NCBI GenBank assembly: GCA_963842535.1
Contig: CAWJGP010000008.1
Location: forward strand, 26,190 to 90,189
Direction: 5' to 3'
Origin: an uncultured Actinomycetota bacterium
GTDB taxonomy: Bacteria; Actinomycetota; Actinomycetes; Propionibacteriales; Nocardioidaceae
Length of the DNA stretch: 64,000 nucleotides
Position 1 is the stretch's first letter. Each line of letters starts with the position of its first letter. This document shows positions 5,705-60,396 of this stretch, piece by piece. The notes below the pieces were generated by a model. That model was not told the DNA's origin, did not search any database, and saw only the letters and a list, made by a program, of their open reading frames with translations. Position numbers and translations under genes: made by a program.

Positions 5705-6328
5705 ATGGAGGTCCGCGAGCTCTCGATCCCCGGCGCGTTCGAGGTGACCCCCGTCAAGCACGCCGACGACCGGGGCACGTTCCTGGAGTGGTTCCGCGAG
5801 GACGTCTTCACCCAGGTCGTCGGCCACCCCCTCCACCTGGCCCAGGCCAACTGCTCGGTCTCGCAGGCGGGCACGCTGCGGGGCATCCACTTCGCCGAGC
5901 TGCCGCCTAGCCAGGCCAAGTTCGTCACCTGCGTCAGCGGCGCCGCCTTCGACGTCGCGGTCGACCTGCGCCTCGGCTCCACGTCGTACGGCCAGTGGGA
6001 CGCAGTGCTTCTCGACGACCAGGAGCGCAAGGCCGTCTACCTTCCCGAGGGGCTGGGGCACGCGTTCCTGGCCCTGGAGGACCACACGGTCGTCAACTAC
6101 CTGTGCTCGACCCCCTATGCCCCCGGCCGCGAGCACGCGATCCATCCCTTCGACCCCGAGATCGCCATCCAGTGGCCGACCGAGGACCGTCACGGCACCG
6201 GGATCACCCCCCTGCTCTCCCCCAAGGACGACGCCGCCCCCTCGTTGGCAGAGGTTCGCGGGACCGGACTGCTCCCGTCGTACGTCGAGGCCCTCGCCTT
6301 CACCCGGTCCCTCGGCGGTCCGCTGTAA
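5705..6328 (+). CDS. rfbC: dTDP-4-dehydrorhamnose 3,5-epimerase
   Basis: DDRGTF, NCSVS, GTLRGIH, QAKFV, VDLR, PEGLGHAF, LSPKD. Confidence 0.96.
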   Translation: MEVRELSIPGAFEVTPVKHADDRGTFLEWFREDVFTQVVGHPLHLAQANCSVSQAGTLRGIHFAELPPSQAKFVTCVSGAAFDVAVDLRLGSTSYGQWDAVLLDDQERKAVYLPEGLGHAFLALEDHTVVNYLCSTPYAPGREHAIHPFDPEIAIQWPTEDRHGTGITPLLSPKDDAAPSLAEVRGTGLLPSYVEALAFTRSLGGPL

Positions 6329-6462
6329 TTCGCCGACCGGTCAGCGGATGCACGCTGAAACACGGCGACCGGTCACTCGATGCACACTCCCGAGGCCCCG
6401 GCGTACACGGATTGACCGGTCGGCACTTCTGAGCGTGCAGGGAGTGACCGGTCGGCGAATTA
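6326..6462. repeat. 137-bp palindromic MITE/REP-like element with 18-bp terminal inverted repeats
   Basis: TAATTCGCCGACCGGTCA (6326-6343) and its exact reverse complement (6445-6462). Internal copies of the core at 6363 and 6413 give a 32-bp period. Confidence 0.85.
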
Positions 6463-7446
6463 GAGGAGACCTGCGCGGGCCTTGAGGGGCTCCCACCAGG
6501 TGCGGTTCGCGCGGTACCACTCGACTGTGTCCGCGAGACCCTGCTCGAACGGCACCTGCGGTTGGTAGCCCAGCTCGTGGCTGATCTTGGTGATGTCGAC
6601 CGAGTAGCGGAGGTCGTGGCCCAGGCGGTCGGTGACCTGCTTGACCTGGTCCCAGTCGGTGCCGGTGGCCTCGAGGAGGAGGCCGGTCAGCTCCTTGTTG
6701 GACAGCTCGGTGCCGCCGCCGATGTTGTAGGTCTCACCGGGCCGGCCACCCTCGAGCACGAGCTGGATGCCGCGGCAGTGATCGTCGACGTGCAGCCAGT
6801 CGCGCACGTTGGCGCCCTCGCCGTACAGCGGCACCTGTGCGCCGTCGATCAGGTTGGTCACGAACAGCGGGATGACCTTCTCGGGGAACTGGTAGGGCCC
6901 GTAGTTGTTCGAGCAGCGGGTGATGCAGACCGGAAGGCCGTGGGTGCGGTGGTAGGCCCGGGCGAAGAGGTCGCTGGAGGCCTTGGACGCCGAGTACGGC
7001 GAGTTGGGCAGCAGCGGCTGTTCCTCGTCCCAGCTGCCCTGCTCGATGGACCCGTAGACCTCGTCGGTCGAGACGTGCACGAACCTCTCGATCTCGTGGG
7101 CGCGCGCGGAGTCGAGCAGGTTCTGGGTCCCGACGACGTTGGTCATCACGAACTCCGCAGCGCCGAGGATCGACCGATCCACGTGGCTCTCGGCCGCGAA
7201 GTGCACGACCGCGTCGACCTCGCTCATCAGCCGGTCGACGGTGGGCCGGTCGAGGATGTCTCCCTCGACGAACTGCAGCCGCTTGTCGCCCGCCACCGGT
7301 GCGATGTTCGCAATGTTGCCTGCGTAGGTGAGCCTGTCGAGAACGACCACGGTCTCCGGCTCCACACCGCCCCAGGCTCCGGTCAGCACGGAGCGGACGT
7401 AGTGGCTGCCGATGAACCCGGCTCCGCCCGTGACCAGGACTCTCAT
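6460..7446 (-). CDS. rfbB: dTDP-glucose 4,6-dehydratase
   Basis: MRVLVTGGAGFIGS, HFAAESHVDRSI, STDEVYGS, YSASK, RCSNNYGP, RDWLHVDDH. Confidence 0.97.
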   Translation of the reverse strand: MRVLVTGGAGFIGSHYVRSVLTGAWGGVEPETVVVLDRLTYAGNIANIAPVAGDKRLQFVEGDILDRPTVDRLMSEVDAVVHFAAESHVDRSILGAAEFVMTNVVGTQNLLDSARAHEIERFVHVSTDEVYGSIEQGSWDEEQPLLPNSPYSASKASSDLFARAYHRTHGLPVCITRCSNNYGPYQFPEKVIPLFVTNLIDGAQVPLYGEGANVRDWLHVDDHCRGIQLVLEGGRPGETYNIGGGTELSNKELTGLLLEATGTDWDQVKQVTDRLGHDLRYSVDITKISHELGYQPQVPFEQGLADTVEWYRANRTWWEPLKARAGLL

Positions 7447-56014: not shown

Positions 56015-57280
56015 TCAAGCGCGGCGCTGCCACCAGGCAGTGACCACGCCCGCGACCAGCCCACCGAGGCTCATCGCCATCACCGCGGCCACCAGCACCT
56101 CCCCCAGGGGAGCGCCGATGTCGGCCATCCGGCCGGTGCCCATCGGACCGCCAGAGAGCGCGATCGCCAGGGTGGTCAGGACTGCCGCGCCGAAGCCGCA
56201 GCCGAAGCCGCGCAGCGCGGCGGAGTCGTACGACGTGACCCGGTAAGCACGCTGCGCGAGGACCGCGCCCACGGCGCCGACGACCACTGGCACCGCAAGC
56301 AGGCCAGCCGCCCACTCGGGGGTGGCCCCGTCGCCGGGCAGGGCCGCGAGCAACGGGAAGGCGGGGACCGGTCCGAGCGCGACGACGGTGGGCGACACCA
56401 CCGTCCCGGTGCCGATCGCGAAGCCCGGCCCCAGGAGGTAGGCGCTGCCGAACAGGACCGCGTTGGGCGCGACCGCGACCGTCGCGAGCGCGTACATCAC
56501 GTAGTCGCCCGGCCCGAGCTGCAGCTCGGACATCACCGTGGCCGCCTCGTTGAGCCCTGTGACGAGGGCAGCGGCCACCAGCACCGAGGACGCGACGACG
56601 AGCAGCAGGAACGACGCGGCGGCGCCGTACGCGATCGACCGGATCCAGCCGGGCACGCGCTCGACCCAGCCGCGGAGGTGACCCGTCCCGGAGGCGATGC
56701 CGAGCGTCCCAGCAGTCCCCGAGAGCAGCAGCGAGCCCACGATGGCCCGCCCGAGGCTGGGGCTGGCCGAGTCCTGCGCGGCGATCACGCAGGTGACCAC
56801 CGCTATCACGACGTAGATGCCGGTGAGGATCGTTGCCGCCAGCAGCACGGCCCGGTCGTCCTCGGGCGGCTCCGAGGTCGCCGCCGCCCAGCGCCCGGAG
56901 CGGTAGACGACCATCGCGATCAGCGCGGTCAGGGTGAGCGGCACGATCCCGAGAGGTACGCCGGACAGGGTCAGCTGCGCTCCATGGCCCACCAGCCACG
57001 CGTCCGCACCGACCCGGAGAGCGTCAGTGGTCTGGCCGTGCGCTCCGGCGTCGGCCAGGAACCAGCCGATGACGGCTACGCCCATGCAGGTGACCATCGC
57101 GGTGCCGGCAGCACCCAGGGCCGCGAGGGCGGCCGACACGGTGAGCGGTCGCCCCTCTGGCTCCGCGCCGGGCGTCGACCCGGAGGGGCGTCTGGAGAGG
57201 AGGCGGGACAGACGTCCGTAGACCCCAAGTGGACGTCCGGACGAGCCCGCGGAGGTCGGTCGGCTCAGCAGATCAGTCAT
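56015..57280 (-). CDS. DUF6350/PerM-like integral membrane protein
   Basis: WLVGHG, PNAV, PVPAFPLLAALP, GGPMGTGRM, many TM helices. Lies directly upstream of purN. Confidence 0.8.
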   Translation of the reverse strand: MTDLLSRPTSAGSSGRPLGVYGRLSRLLSRRPSGSTPGAEPEGRPLTVSAALAALGAAGTAMVTCMGVAVIGWFLADAGAHGQTTDALRVGADAWLVGHGAQLTLSGVPLGIVPLTLTALIAMVVYRSGRWAAATSEPPEDDRAVLLAATILTGIYVVIAVVTCVIAAQDSASPSLGRAIVGSLLLSGTAGTLGIASGTGHLRGWVERVPGWIRSIAYGAAASFLLLVVASSVLVAAALVTGLNEAATVMSELQLGPGDYVMYALATVAVAPNAVLFGSAYLLGPGFAIGTGTVVSPTVVALGPVPAFPLLAALPGDGATPEWAAGLLAVPVVVGAVGAVLAQRAYRVTSYDSAALRGFGCGFGAAVLTTLAIALSGGPMGTGRMADIGAPLGEVLVAAVMAMSLGGLVAGVVTAWWQRRA

Positions 57281-57346
57281 CGCTGTCCCATCCTGACCCA
57301 GGACGTCGGGTAGGCCGGAGAGGCACGCGGGTAGCCTCGGCCTGTC

Positions 57347-59230
57347 ATGCCCAAGCTTTCTGACGATCTTCTCGCCGAGTTCGACGCGTTCTACCTCGGC
57401 AGCCGCCGCCGGCTGGTTCTCGAGACCTACGCCCTGACGGGCGACCTCGCCGCTTCCCGGAACGCGGTCGGCGACGCCTTCGTGGCTGCCCGTCACCACT
57501 GGCGCAAGGTGGGCCGGCTGCCGGACCCGGAGGAATGGGTCCGACCACGTGCCTGGGCGATGGCCCAGCGGCGGCACGTGGCCCGGTTGTGGCGCCGGGA
57601 GAAGGGGCTGACCGAGGAGCAGAAGAGCGTGCTCGACGCTCTGCACCGGCTCCCGGACCAGCAGCGCAAGGTGCTCCTGCTCAGCCACCTGGCGGGCCTG
57701 AACGTCGCGGAGGTCGGCCGCGAGCTCGGTGAGACGCCGGCCCAGGTGGAGCATCTCCTCGCGGTCGCGACCAAGTCGTTCCGCCGCAGGACCGGCCGCA
57801 CGACGGAGGCCGCTGAGGCATTATCCGGGTCAGGCGACGGGGTGCTGAACGCGATCGAGTCGCTGGCGCCGATCGCCGAGGCCGCGGCACTCCCCCAGCC
57901 CGTCGCGATCCACCGCGGTGGCACCCGCCGCCGGCGGCTGCACGCAGTGGTCGGCGTCGCCGCACTCCTCGCCTTCACCCTCGTCTGCGGCACCTTCGTC
58001 GTTCGTGGCGGCGTCGATCAGCCCGCGTCCGCGGCGCCGGAGCGCACGCCGAGGCCGGTGACCGAGGCGATGATGCTGACCCCCGCGCAGGTACAGCCGC
58101 TGGCACCTCGCGAGCCGTGGCAGCTGCTCGACACCTCCGACAACACCTCGGGCACCGGCATCAACACGGTCTGCCAGGCCACCCGGTTCGCCGACCCTCA
58201 GGGCCGCGGGACGTTCGTCCGCACGTTCGCCGCCACCGGCGTACCCCGGCGCAACCTGCTCCAGACCGTCGAGATCTCGCGCACCCCCGAGGCCGCCGGC
58301 GCGGCGTACAAGACCACGTTGGGCTGGTTCGCGGGCTGCAGCGAGGCCCGGCTGCAGCTGCTCGGATCCTTCCGGGTGCGCGGGCTCGGTGAGGAGGCGC
58401 AGATGCTGAAGCTGCGCATCCCCAACGACGTACGCCGCACCTACGTCGTCGGGCTCGCCCGCACCGGCTTGCTGACTGTCTCGATGGTCCTGGAGACCCT
58501 CAACGGCCGACCCGTCGAGATCGCCCGCGCCGTGACGGCACTCACCGAGGCCGTGCGCAACGTGTGCGGCGCCGACCCGTCCGGTCCGTGCCCGGTCGCG
58601 GTCCGGGCCGCGCCGGTGCTGCCTCCACCCTCGGGCGAGACGCCGGGCACCCTGGCCGCCGCCGACCTGCCGGTAGTCGGCCGGGTCAACCGGCCCTGGG
58701 TCGGGACCCAGCCGGTGCCTGCGCGCCCCAACATCGCGGCGACCACCTGCGACAAGACCAACTTCCTCAAGGCCGGCGCGCCCGCGGCCGCGACCAGGAC
58801 GTTCCTGATCCCGCAGGCGAGGGTGTCCAAGCGCTTCGGCATCACCGAGACCTATGGCGCGTTCGCCACCCCGGCCCGGGCACGCGCTGTCGTGCGCGGC
58901 ATCTTGACCGACATGGCGACCTGCGAGAAGCGCGACCTCGGCGCCGAGGTCAGCAGCCAGGTTGTCCAGCCCGACGGGTACCGAGGGTCGGAGTACGCCC
59001 TGTGGCGCCTCGACAGCGAGATCAACAAGACCGCCTCCGTGGGGTTCTGGATGGGTGTGGCGCGGGTGGGCAGGTACGTTGCGCAGGTGAACTTCACGCC
59101 GGTCGGGAACAACGACATCGACGAGGTCACCTTCCAGGCGCTGATCTCGCGGGCACGCGACCGGCTCTTCGAGCTGACCGTCACCACACCATCGCAGGGC
59201 CCATCAGCGACCCCATCAACGGGCCCATGA
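57347..59230 (+). CDS. ECF sigma-factor-like N-terminus fused to one TM helix and two extracytoplasmic PknH-like sensor repeats
   Basis: Region 2-like FDAFY...YALTGD...DAF...DPEEWVR. Region 4-like ALHRLPDQQRKVLLL...VAEVGRELG. RRRRLH followed by a hydrophobic helix. Two Cys-paired repeats. Confidence 0.7.
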   Translation: MPKLSDDLLAEFDAFYLGSRRRLVLETYALTGDLAASRNAVGDAFVAARHHWRKVGRLPDPEEWVRPRAWAMAQRRHVARLWRREKGLTEEQKSVLDALHRLPDQQRKVLLLSHLAGLNVAEVGRELGETPAQVEHLLAVATKSFRRRTGRTTEAAEALSGSGDGVLNAIESLAPIAEAAALPQPVAIHRGGTRRRRLHAVVGVAALLAFTLVCGTFVVRGGVDQPASAAPERTPRPVTEAMMLTPAQVQPLAPREPWQLLDTSDNTSGTGINTVCQATRFADPQGRGTFVRTFAATGVPRRNLLQTVEISRTPEAAGAAYKTTLGWFAGCSEARLQLLGSFRVRGLGEEAQMLKLRIPNDVRRTYVVGLARTGLLTVSMVLETLNGRPVEIARAVTALTEAVRNVCGADPSGPCPVAVRAAPVLPPPSGETPGTLAAADLPVVGRVNRPWVGTQPVPARPNIAATTCDKTNFLKAGAPAAATRTFLIPQARVSKRFGITETYGAFATPARARAVVRGILTDMATCEKRDLGAEVSSQVVQPDGYRGSEYALWRLDSEINKTASVGFWMGVARVGRYVAQVNFTPVGNNDIDEVTFQALISRARDRLFELTVTTPSQGPSATPSTGP

Positions 59231-60396
59231 GCGGCTTCGAGCTGGAAGAGGGGCTGGTCTACCTCGACGGCAACTCGCTGGGCCCACCTCCCGCGGGCGT
59301 GGCGGAACGGCTGCAGGACGTGGTCCACCGGGAGTGGGGCAAGGGACTCATCCGCTCCTGGAACACCGCCAACTGGATCGAGCTGAGCCACCGGGTCGCC
59401 GCCAGGATCGCCCCGCTGATCGGGGTGCAGCCGGTCGACGTACACGTCGGCGACAGCACGAGCGTGACCCTGTTCAAGACCATGGTCGCCGCCGCGCGGA
59501 TGCGTCCCGACCGGCACGTGCTGGTCGTGGAGCCGTCCACCTTCCCGACGAACGGTTACATCGCCGCGGGTGTCGCCGACCTGATGGGTCTGGAGCTGCG
59601 CTGGTGCGACCCCGCGGACCCGCTGGCCGCGGTGGACGAGGACGTGGCGCTGCTCAGCCTGACCCACGTCGACTTCCGGACCGGGGCGATGTTCGACCTG
59701 GCCGGCATCACCGCCGGCGCGCAGGCACGCGGCGCGCTGATGCAGTGGGACCTGTGTCATTCGACCGGCGCGATGCCGATCGACCTCACCGGCGCCGGTG
59801 CTGACATCGCCGTCGGCTGTACCTACAAGTACCTCAACGGTGGCCCCGGCTCCCCGGCGTTCGTCTGGGTGGCGCCCGAGCACCAGGCCGATGCCCGGCA
59901 GCCGATCACCGGCTGGATGGGGCACGCGAACCCGTTCGCGATGGCGCGCACCCACACCCCGGTCGCGGGCATCGGCAGCTTCGCCTCCGGTACGCCGCCG
60001 GTGCTGGCGCTCTCCGCCCTCGAGGCGGCCCTCGAGGCGTTCGACGAGGTCAGCGTGGACGAGCTGCGGATCAGGTCGCTCGAGCTCACCGACCAGTTCA
60101 TGGCAGCTGTCGAGGAGCGGCTCCCCGGCGTCTTCGAGATCGTCACCCCGCGCGAGCACGCGCGCCGCGGCAGCCAGGTCTCCCTGCGCCACGACCAGGC
60201 GTACGGCGTGGTCCAGGCGCTGATCGCGCGAGACGTCGTCGGCGACTTCCGCGACCCCGACATCGCCCGCTTCGGCTTCGCCCCGCTCTACAACACCACC
60301 AACGACGTCCGGCTGGCCGTCGAGCGGCTCGAGGCCGTGATGGCGAACGAGGAGTACGCCGACCCGGCGTACTCCTCGCGCAATGCTGTTACTTAG
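59227..60396 (+). CDS. kynU: Kynureninase
   Basis: YLDGNSLG, DSTSV.LFK, WDLCHS.GA, PLP lysine in GCTYKYLNGGPG, GSQVS. ATGA overlap with the upstream gene. Confidence 0.93.
   Translation: MSGFELEEGLVYLDGNSLGPPPAGVAERLQDVVHREWGKGLIRSWNTANWIELSHRVAARIAPLIGVQPVDVHVGDSTSVTLFKTMVAAARMRPDRHVLVVEPSTFPTNGYIAAGVADLMGLELRWCDPADPLAAVDEDVALLSLTHVDFRTGAMFDLAGITAGAQARGALMQWDLCHSTGAMPIDLTGAGADIAVGCTYKYLNGGPGSPAFVWVAPEHQADARQPITGWMGHANPFAMARTHTPVAGIGSFASGTPPVLALSALEAALEAFDEVSVDELRIRSLELTDQFMAAVEERLPGVFEIVTPREHARRGSQVSLRHDQAYGVVQALIARDVVGDFRDPDIARFGFAPLYNTTNDVRLAVERLEAVMANEEYADPAYSSRNAVT

Follow-up and report, generated by a model that had tools for sequence, protein, structure and literature searches.

A sigma-like module, one transmembrane helix and a twin PknH_C-like ectodomain in a single chain: a candidate one-component envelope regulator of Nocardioidaceae

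The window analyzed here, a 64,000-nucleotide stretch of a metagenome-assembled contig from an uncultured member of the Nocardioidaceae (GenBank assembly GCA_963842535.1, contig CAWJGP010000008.1), contains a gene for a 627-aa protein in which a module resembling extracytoplasmic function (ECF) sigma factors, a single transmembrane (TM) helix and two PknH_C-like domains follow one another (Table 1). It lies between a divergent perM-like gene and a kynureninase gene. A first-pass annotation, made by a model from the letters alone, had read the protein as a sigma factor fused to its own anti-sigma factor and receptor, and had called for the fusion to be confirmed in reads and orthologues. The fusion proved genuine. 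The open reading frame (ORF) has a GC content at third codon positions of 0.908, as expected for a coding frame. In a protein collection clustered at 90%, 514 homologues of about 600 aa with this architecture were found; nearly all of the best 120 are 590-640 aa long, and they cover 96-98% of the query at identities down to 51%. Among 1.84 billion representatives, a profile of the C-terminal half alone matched 715 proteins at E<=1e-3, of which 273 reached E<=1e-30. Of the best 150 representatives (50% clustering), 104 have the sigma-like N-terminus as well as an entire twin domain, and the architecture is present at 80 genomic loci. Furthermore, a 1808-nt Logan contig from an unrelated run spans 57324-59146 with 131 substitutions and 15 gapped bases, all of the latter within 57810-57833; because the gaps are only in frame, the reading frame is preserved. 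Two genes merged by an indel or assembly error are ruled out by the orthologues and this independent contig, and we give that explanation practically no credence: nothing was found in its favor, the window being, for its part, a metagenome-assembled contig.

On profile matches and the predicted fold, residues 10-149 appear to form an ECF-type sigma2 plus sigma4 module, in agreement with the earlier placement of sigma regions 2 and 4 at residues of about 10-150. The best NCBIfam match was TIGR02983 (SigE-fam_strep; residues 10-149, E 4.8e-15), and Pfam Sigma70_r4_2 matched residues 94-139 with 35.1 bits, above its gathering score of 25.7. The family profile, built from 35 diverse members, aligned over profile positions 7-144 with SigL of Mycobacterium tuberculosis (6dv9_F, E 2.8e-5), covering both sigma2 and sigma4, and also aligned over these two domains with BldN, SigE, SigK and SigJ; its match to the PhyR sigma-like domain (PhyR-SL, 2lfw) was weaker (E 4.5e-3), and weak matches to the Pfam family PhyR_sigma-like were found in 14/32 members. 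An AlphaFold2 (AF2) model of the whole protein, built on 32 orthologues with a mean predicted local distance difference test (pLDDT) score of 82.5, contained three helices in sigma2 (6-31, 34-50 and 62-78) and four across residues 90-149 in sigma4. Foldseek against the PDB assigned the modelled N-terminus to ECF sigmas with a probability of 1.0 and TMt values of 0.64-0.71 (SigW 5wuq, 0.64-0.67; CnrH 4cxf, 0.67; RpoE-NepR 5uxx, 0.71), in line with the sigma fold anticipated by the annotation, and the sigma4 structures 3hug and 2h27 reached 0.78-0.80. The two domains are packed in a compact 'closed' arrangement in the model, as in sigma/anti-sigma complexes; PhyR-SL/NepR (2lfw) was matched at a TMt of 0.64, and holoenzyme-bound sigmas aligned at a root-mean-square deviation of about 26 A. 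Free ECF sigmas tend to come out compact from AF2 anyway.

Conservation was assessed in two alignments, one of close orthologues (A1) and one of the 35 diverse members (A3). The sigma2 helices are the most conserved part of the protein, with identities of 70-84% in A1 and 45-52% in A3, compared with 57-61% and 35-38% in the ectodomain. They carry the motifs LTGD, AVRDAFxAAW and DPExWVRxRAW together with an invariant R66; AVRDAFxAAW, in region 2.2, and the loop DPExWVR are nearly invariant, as is the Arg run of regions 2.3/2.4. Judging from these alignments, the module looks able to retain a sigma2-type interaction, either with the RNA polymerase (RNAP) core or with another partner.

The cytoplasmic stretch between sigma4 and the membrane comprises only about 35-45 residues. 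It consists of a variable acidic/Gly stretch, short modelled helices within residues 153-179 (165-171 and 174-179, pLDDT 74-87) and the Arg cluster RGGTRRRR. The string LPQPVAIHRGGTRRRR, which had been likened to the N-terminus of cognate anti-sigma factors, is indeed present at residues 182-197, yet no anti-sigma family matched the window protein, this string included, at E<=1 in NCBIfam or Pfam. The 627-aa protein has no Cys before residue 214, so that no HxxxCxxC zinc-binding anti-sigma (ZAS) motif occurs in its cytoplasmic part. A class I anti-sigma domain takes up roughly 80-90 residues, and on its predicted extent the stretch between sigma4 and the membrane cannot be one. With no anti-sigma domain, tethering to the membrane would itself have to be the inhibitory principle. 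The TM segment, placed at 57945-58005 by the first-pass annotation and recovered here with nearly the same limits, reaches a KD19 maximum of 2.52, the next best value elsewhere in the protein being 1.46, and forms part of a long helix (185-218) in the AF2 model. By the positive-inside rule the predicted topology is N-in/C-out with the Arg cluster in the cytoplasm, leaving an extracytoplasmic extension of about 400 aa after the TM helix.

Two sites in the protein tolerate length change, one in the linker (57810-57833) and one in the C-terminal tail (59187-59224). In public metagenomes, a related strain shows an in-frame 15-nt length difference at the former, within the acidic/Gly-rich linker after sigma4, a place in which NG(N/A)G repeats are expanded in the orthologue P0007; at the latter, a 36-nt in-frame deletion in the low-complexity tail was seen in three metagenome runs.

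Outside the membrane, the AF2 model contained two alpha/beta domains (residues 240-406 and 420-612) whose secondary-structure elements follow one another in the same order. The two repeats, D1 (residues 240-406) and D2 (residues 436-612), matched each other in hhalign with a probability of 90% and an E value of 1.5e-6 over 165 aligned columns when the diverse alignment was used; the score was 45, while none of 30 column shuffles scored above 18. With close orthologues the match was marginal (E 0.023), and it is convincing only with the diverse alignment. On this comparison D1 and D2 are diverged duplicates of each other, in agreement with the two repeats of about 170 aa seen in the first pass. 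Foldseek related the modelled ectodomain to that of PknH (4esq, probability 1.00, TMt 0.58, 201 columns) and to TiME/Rv3705c (7cu8/7cu9, probability 1.00, TMt 0.43-0.56). PknH_C (PF14032) had no Pfam match at E<=1 in the window protein and gave sub-threshold matches in 14/32 orthologues (best E 2e-4; gathering score 27 bits). The distant members P0190 (25.9 bits, E 1e-5) and P0250 (25.4 bits) also stayed below the gathering score, a precomputed PF14032 label is attached to some relatives, and the profile of the C-terminal half had no match among PDB sequences even at E 10. Against PDB entries it was only by fold that the C-terminal half could be linked to PknH and TiME, and the likeness to PknH sensor domains that had been suspected from the letters is correct. 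Six Cys residues, all C-terminal to the TM helix, are invariant among the 35 diverse members, down to 28% identity, and are predicted to form the disulfide pairs C276/C331, C407/C415 and C468/C526. Two of these pairs, in the motifs TVCQ (C276) and AGCS (C331) of D1 and TTCD (C468) and ATCE (C526) of D2, align in register and had been pointed out before; the pair C407/C415 had not.

Table 1. Positions of the gene, its predicted parts and adjoining elements in the window; the last row refers to another genome
Feature	Position	Strand	Basis or remark
perM-like integral membrane protein (PF19877, DUF6350/PerM)	56015..57280	-	divergent neighbor
Putative extended -10 element GGG-TAGCCT	57329..57337	+	TANNNT type, 9 nt before ATG
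ORF for sigma-like/TM/twin PknH_C-like ectodomain protein	57347..59230	+	ATG start, 627 aa
sigma2-like domain, residues 10-80	57374..57586	+	profile aligns to regions 2.1-2.4 of M. tuberculosis SigL; fold; conservation
sigma4-like domain, residues 90-149	57614..57793	+	Sigma70_r4_2 above gathering score; fold
Region 4.2 'recognition' helix, residues 129-148	57731..57790	+	degenerate by alignment
Cytoplasmic juxtamembrane linker, residues 150-196	57794..57934	+	AF2, Pfam/NCBIfam scans, Logan contig
Single TM helix, residues 197-219	57935..58003	+	hydropathy, AF2
Pro/Ala-rich extracytoplasmic spacer, residues 220-239	58004..58063	+	pLDDT <50 for residues 218-233; 16-26% identity
Ectodomain repeat 1 (residues 240-406) and C407-C415 loop	58064..58591	+	PknH_C-like alpha/beta fold
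Conserved Pro-rich inter-domain linker VLPPPSGETPGTLAxADLP	58592..58651	+	orthologue alignment
Ectodomain repeat 2 (residues 436-612)	58652..59182	+	PknH_C-like fold, Cys pair C468/C526
Non-conserved, low-complexity C-terminal tail	59183..59227	+	pLDDT <50
Kynureninase gene	59227..60396	+	TIGR01814, 270 bits (cut-off 246)
Sigma-less orthologue of Marmoricola sp. Leaf446	L057, about 5800-7173 (NZ_LMRF01000001.1)		

The 80 loci, all from species-representative genomes of Nocardioidaceae (Marmoricola, Nocardioides and metagenome-assembled genomes), were found with the close-orthologue alignment, and the sample is therefore biased towards close relatives. A 28%-identical member comes from Aeromicrobium, and all named matches of another search, started from a member of 33% identity, were Nocardioides species, annotated as 'hypothetical' or 'sigma24 family'. 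The family thus looks specific to Nocardioidaceae, a group of soil actinobacteria. The sigma-like gene stands head-to-head with perM in 81/82 loci, including those of the most divergent members (28-33% identity), in the conserved order purH-purN-perM, sigma-like-kynureninase, sucD-sucC. The longest perM-like ORF of the window (56015-57754, 579 aa) would overlap the sigma-like gene by 400 nt; its true start is likely at 57280 (421 aa, intergenic region of 66 bp), because of the orthologue alignment and the conserved N-terminus MTDLLSRP. The gene for kynureninase, an enzyme of tryptophan catabolism, follows the sigma-like gene in 75/82 loci, and in the window its ATG overlaps the sigma-like TGA (ATGA), which indicates that the two genes are probably co-transcribed. 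The database entry P0089 (997 aa) has been called as a sigma-like/kynureninase read-through. PerM of M. tuberculosis is associated with the divisome, stabilizes FtsB, acts in cell division and is important for persistence. In the same organism, co-immunoprecipitation with Rv0954, which is encoded in one operon with PerM, gave PknH as the top partner (PMC8093794). We regard this co-purification alongside the perM pairing found here as a coincidence that may serve as a lead, not as evidence. Rv0954 itself was rejected as a homologue, being an unrelated, Pro/Gln-rich protein with four TM helices.

An element of the form GnTAnnnT, most commonly GGTAGCCT or GGTAACCT, lies 7-11 nt 5' of the start codon in 40/75 orthologous upstream regions, where shuffled sequences give an expectation of 0.45. 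In the window the corresponding -10 element is so close to the ATG that a leaderless mRNA is implied, and the gene's own promoter, as read from these alignments, resembles a leaderless housekeeping promoter and not one of the ECF type. In a more distant clade, GGTACCGT is found about 40 nt upstream together with a GGAGG ribosome-binding site; the arrangement GGTTC...GGTACCGTTC in that clade was rejected as an ECF promoter since its spacing is too long for GGAAC-N16-17-CGTT. A scan for E. coli-type promoters and terminators returned nothing, as expected at 72% GC. Within the intergenic region (57281-57346), two blocks are conserved among close relatives, GAGGCACGCGGG just 5' of TAGCCT and CCCATCCTGACCCAGGA adjoining the perM start, which may represent the promoter of perM or else the operator of a shared regulator. 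At locus L066, from one metagenome-assembled genome, tandem CCCCGACTG/CCCCTGACTG units stand directly 5' of the sigma-like gene (about 5900-6000).

Among sigma factors, ECF members that carry a fused sensory extension are seen as the counterpart of one-component systems, and to our knowledge very few of them have been tested so far. The actinobacterial groups ECF48, ECF52 (SCO4117) and ECF53 have been proposed to act in one-component signalling, with activation predicted to be proteolytic (PMC8999054; PMC5826349). They share with the protein studied here a sigma2/sigma4 core, predicted in the latter, a membrane anchor (one or two TM helices there, one here) and a large extracytoplasmic C-terminal part. 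They differ from it in that their TM helix is preceded by an anti-sigma segment of zinc-finger (ZAS-like) type, whereas our protein lacks a ZAS and any cytoplasmic Cys, has a degenerate 4.2 helix and falls below the curated ECF cut-offs; ECF52 has a Pro-rich region and a carbohydrate-binding domain in place of the PknH_C duplication. In IutY (ECF243) of Pseudomonas putida, a sigma/anti-sigma hybrid, release by Prc/RseP proteolysis has been shown experimentally (PMC8999054). It likewise joins a sigma factor and a membrane-spanning sensor in one polypeptide, and it is the mechanistic model for release; however, IutY belongs to proteobacterial cell-surface signalling and has a FecR-type anti-sigma part, for which, as for other anti-sigma families, the studied protein had no Pfam match. 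On the sensor side, PknH (Rv1266c) combines the same type of disulfide-bonded fold with one TM helix and a cytoplasmic output domain, but its output is a Ser/Thr kinase and it has one sensor domain, as opposed to a sigma-like module and two sensor domains. TiME/Rv3705c is a single domain with two intramolecular disulfides (C71-C134 and C176-C193) that forms 7- or 8-fold rings and tubes (PMC8378821). Its PknH_C-type fold, N-terminal membrane helix and Cys spacing are comparable to those found here (C276-C331, C407-C415), whereas it has neither a cytoplasmic module nor a second ectodomain repeat. By analogy only, the sigma-like domain of PhyR, from the alphaproteobacterial general stress response, also has the sigma2/sigma4 fold; it has lost DNA-reading residues and works by partner binding, and, in contrast to the studied protein with its membrane anchor and no receiver or known NepR-like partner, PhyR is soluble and receiver-controlled.

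ZAS, SnoaL, TPR, carbohydrate-binding and multi-TM parts are the fused extensions described for such groups in the paper that re-classified the ECFs and in a review of non-canonical ECFs (PMC8999054 for the review). A sigma factor with a duplicated PknH_C ectodomain is described neither in the main text of the former, where PknH is not mentioned, nor in the review, in accordance with the first-pass impression that the domain combination had not been characterized. The group ECF283, which has a Nocardioides example, was rejected as a home group, being kinase-associated and of a different architecture. What is known, then, is the ECF-like sigma with a fused TM helix and extracytoplasmic extension, and what is new is its combination with a PknH_C duplication, a 4.2 helix that has decayed and a constant association with perM.

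Among the readings of this gene product we rank a tethered sigma-type regulator first, a membrane-anchored sigma mimic second and a structural envelope protein third. The tethered regulator, freed by proteolysis, engaging RNAP via sigma2 and reading promoters non-canonically, is put forward tentatively and at somewhat less than an even chance. The gene product would be a single-pass membrane protein that acts in the cell envelope as a one-component system for transmembrane signalling. Outside, its two tandem, disulfide-stabilized PknH_C-fold domains would bind an envelope ligand or partner, for which the strict perM pairing suggests a septal or cell-wall context. Inside, the ECF-derived sigma2/sigma4 module would be held at the membrane by the short linker and thereby kept unavailable. 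A signal at the ectodomain would free the module, most plausibly by site-1/site-2 intramembrane proteolysis as in IutY and as predicted for ECF52, and the freed module may then engage the RNAP core through the well-conserved sigma2 surface (regions 2.2-2.4). Promoter recognition would have to be non-canonical because of the degenerate region 4.2 helix, and could be -10-driven or helper-dependent. In favor of this reading are the profile and fold matches to ECF sigmas, PknH and TiME, the conservation of sigma2 with its region 2.2 motif and R66, the single TM helix with cytoplasmic Arg cluster and extracytoplasmic Cys, the retention of the architecture and of the perM synteny, and the precedents of IutY, ECF48, ECF52 and ECF53. 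Architecture, topology, homologies, conservation, synteny and promoter type are shown by the analysis, and ligand binding, the connection to PerM, proteolytic release and RNAP binding are inferred.

A number of observations weigh against the tethered regulator. Of all structured segments, the region 4.2 helix shows the lowest conservation, with an identity of 34% in A1 and 24.5% in A3, barely above that of the disordered extracytoplasmic spacer. It is net acidic (mean net charge about -1), and its consensus A-E-Q/R-E-L-Q-T-A-T contrasts with V-K-S-R-L-x-R-A-R in SigL, CnrH, BldN and SigF, so that E, Q or T stand at positions held by K, S or R in ECF sigmas. The K/R fraction does not exceed 0.31 at any position from 131 to 148, that is, the basic -35-contacting residues are not conserved, and a canonical reading of the -35 element appears unlikely from the alignment. 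The curated cut-offs were not reached either by TIGR02983 (55.8 bits against 141.55) or by the general model TIGR02937, sigma70-ECF (31.1 bits against 42.9); the SigE-type label of the first-pass annotation stands as the best match and falls short of the cut-off. Pfam Sigma70_r2 had no match at E<=1 in the window protein and scored 18.8 bits in the homologue P0150, below its gathering score of 24. An ECF-type -35/-10 pair (GGAAC-N16-17-CGTT) is not conserved in the 75 upstream regions, which showed only TANNNT-type elements, and neither a protease gene nor a recognizable anti-sigma domain was seen in the conserved neighborhood. Moreover, the orthologue that Marmoricola sp. Leaf446 carries at this locus, flanked by the usual neighbors, lacks the sigma domain and consists of a basic tail of about 25 residues, a TM helix and the twin ectodomain. 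P0122 is an independent sigma-less example, and 18 of the best 150 representatives begin with Met and have no sigma module, at least 10 of these 18 with the short-tail/TM layout. Because the 4.2 helix is degenerate, the curated cut-offs are missed, the promoter is not ECF-like and sigma-less orthologues persist, a working sigma dependent on proteolytic release is doubtful. The retention of sigma-less orthologues also indicates that the ectodomain has a role independent of the sigma module. The locus L035 may resemble the Leaf446 case; in P0180, P0188 and P0132 a lipobox-like (VVAGC) or signal-peptide-like N-terminus replaces the TM anchor and the sigma domain, which indicates that the twin ectodomain is probably also made as a lipoprotein or in secreted form.

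The same observations bear on a membrane-anchored sigma mimic, or pseudo-sigma, that would have kept the fold, lost transcription initiation, never be released and bind a cytoplasmic partner, such as an anti-sigma-like protein, the RNAP core or a divisome component, with ectodomain occupancy altering the binding. The acidic and degenerate 4.2 helix, the ECF model scores under the curated cut-offs, the housekeeping character of both promoter and synteny, the dispensability of the sigma domain in some lineages, the weak PhyR_sigma-like matches (14/32 members) and a compact model nearest to anti-sigma-bound sigmas and PhyR-SL/NepR (2lfw 0.64, 5uxx 0.71) are all consistent with it. On the other hand, sigma2 (regions 2.2-2.4) is the best conserved part and keeps conserved Arg- and Trp-rich positions, as expected if RNAP or DNA binding were retained; the profile is closer to true ECF sigmas (2.8e-5) than to PhyR-SL (4.5e-3); the compact arrangement is usual for free ECF sigmas in AF2; and no partner gene for the sigma-like module is visible in the locus. 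On balance we consider such a mimic rather unlikely. Its more specific form, a transmembrane decoy that would capture or release an anti-sigma-like protein or the RNAP core according to what the ectodomain senses at PerM or the divisome, seems a little more doubtful still; if true, it would be a membrane-spanning analogue of PhyR-NepR partner switching, by which cell-wall or septum status is linked to transcription in Nocardioidaceae. An unlikely alternative in its own right is an envelope protein with a mainly structural or scaffolding role in the PerM/divisome neighborhood, whose ectodomain would do the work by cell-wall binding or by oligomerization as in TiME, the sigma domain being a relic or a minor anchor. 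The sigma-less, lipoprotein- or secreted-looking variants with a conserved ectodomain speak for it, as do the TiME (Rv3705c) fold match and the ability of PknH_C-fold domains to form structural rings (PMC8378821), the strict synteny with perM together with the cell-division role of the M. tuberculosis product, and a promoter that looks constitutive. However, the region of the protein that is conserved best would not be a relic, and 104 of the best 150 representatives have retained the sigma module. The original proposal of a fully functional SigE-type ECF sigma with its cognate anti-sigma domain and receptor in one chain did not survive the analysis of the linker and is now very improbable. 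SigE-fam_strep is the best NCBIfam match, and the helices at 165-179, of moderate pLDDT, could pack on the sigma domains, but no anti-sigma family was detected in NCBIfam or Pfam, the cytoplasmic part has no Cys, ZAS or His-Cys motif, class I anti-sigma domains take roughly 80-90 residues where there is room for only about 35-45, and the 4.2 helix is non-canonical.

The family offers a natural experiment in which the sensor fold coupled to a Ser/Thr kinase in mycobacteria would drive a sigma-like module instead. The combination of a conserved sigma2 with a decayed 4.2 helix bears on how sigma factors become pseudo-sigmas, and the perM pairing could point to what PknH-type domains sense. The soil actinobacteria that carry the gene are harmless, and some have cultured isolates, which makes these questions directly accessible.

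One further gene was observed near a locus of the family: a DUF429 plus RelA_SpoT fusion gene, not seen in the neighborhood of the window, lies near the folD/purH block in one distant member (locus L082, 1312-3060).

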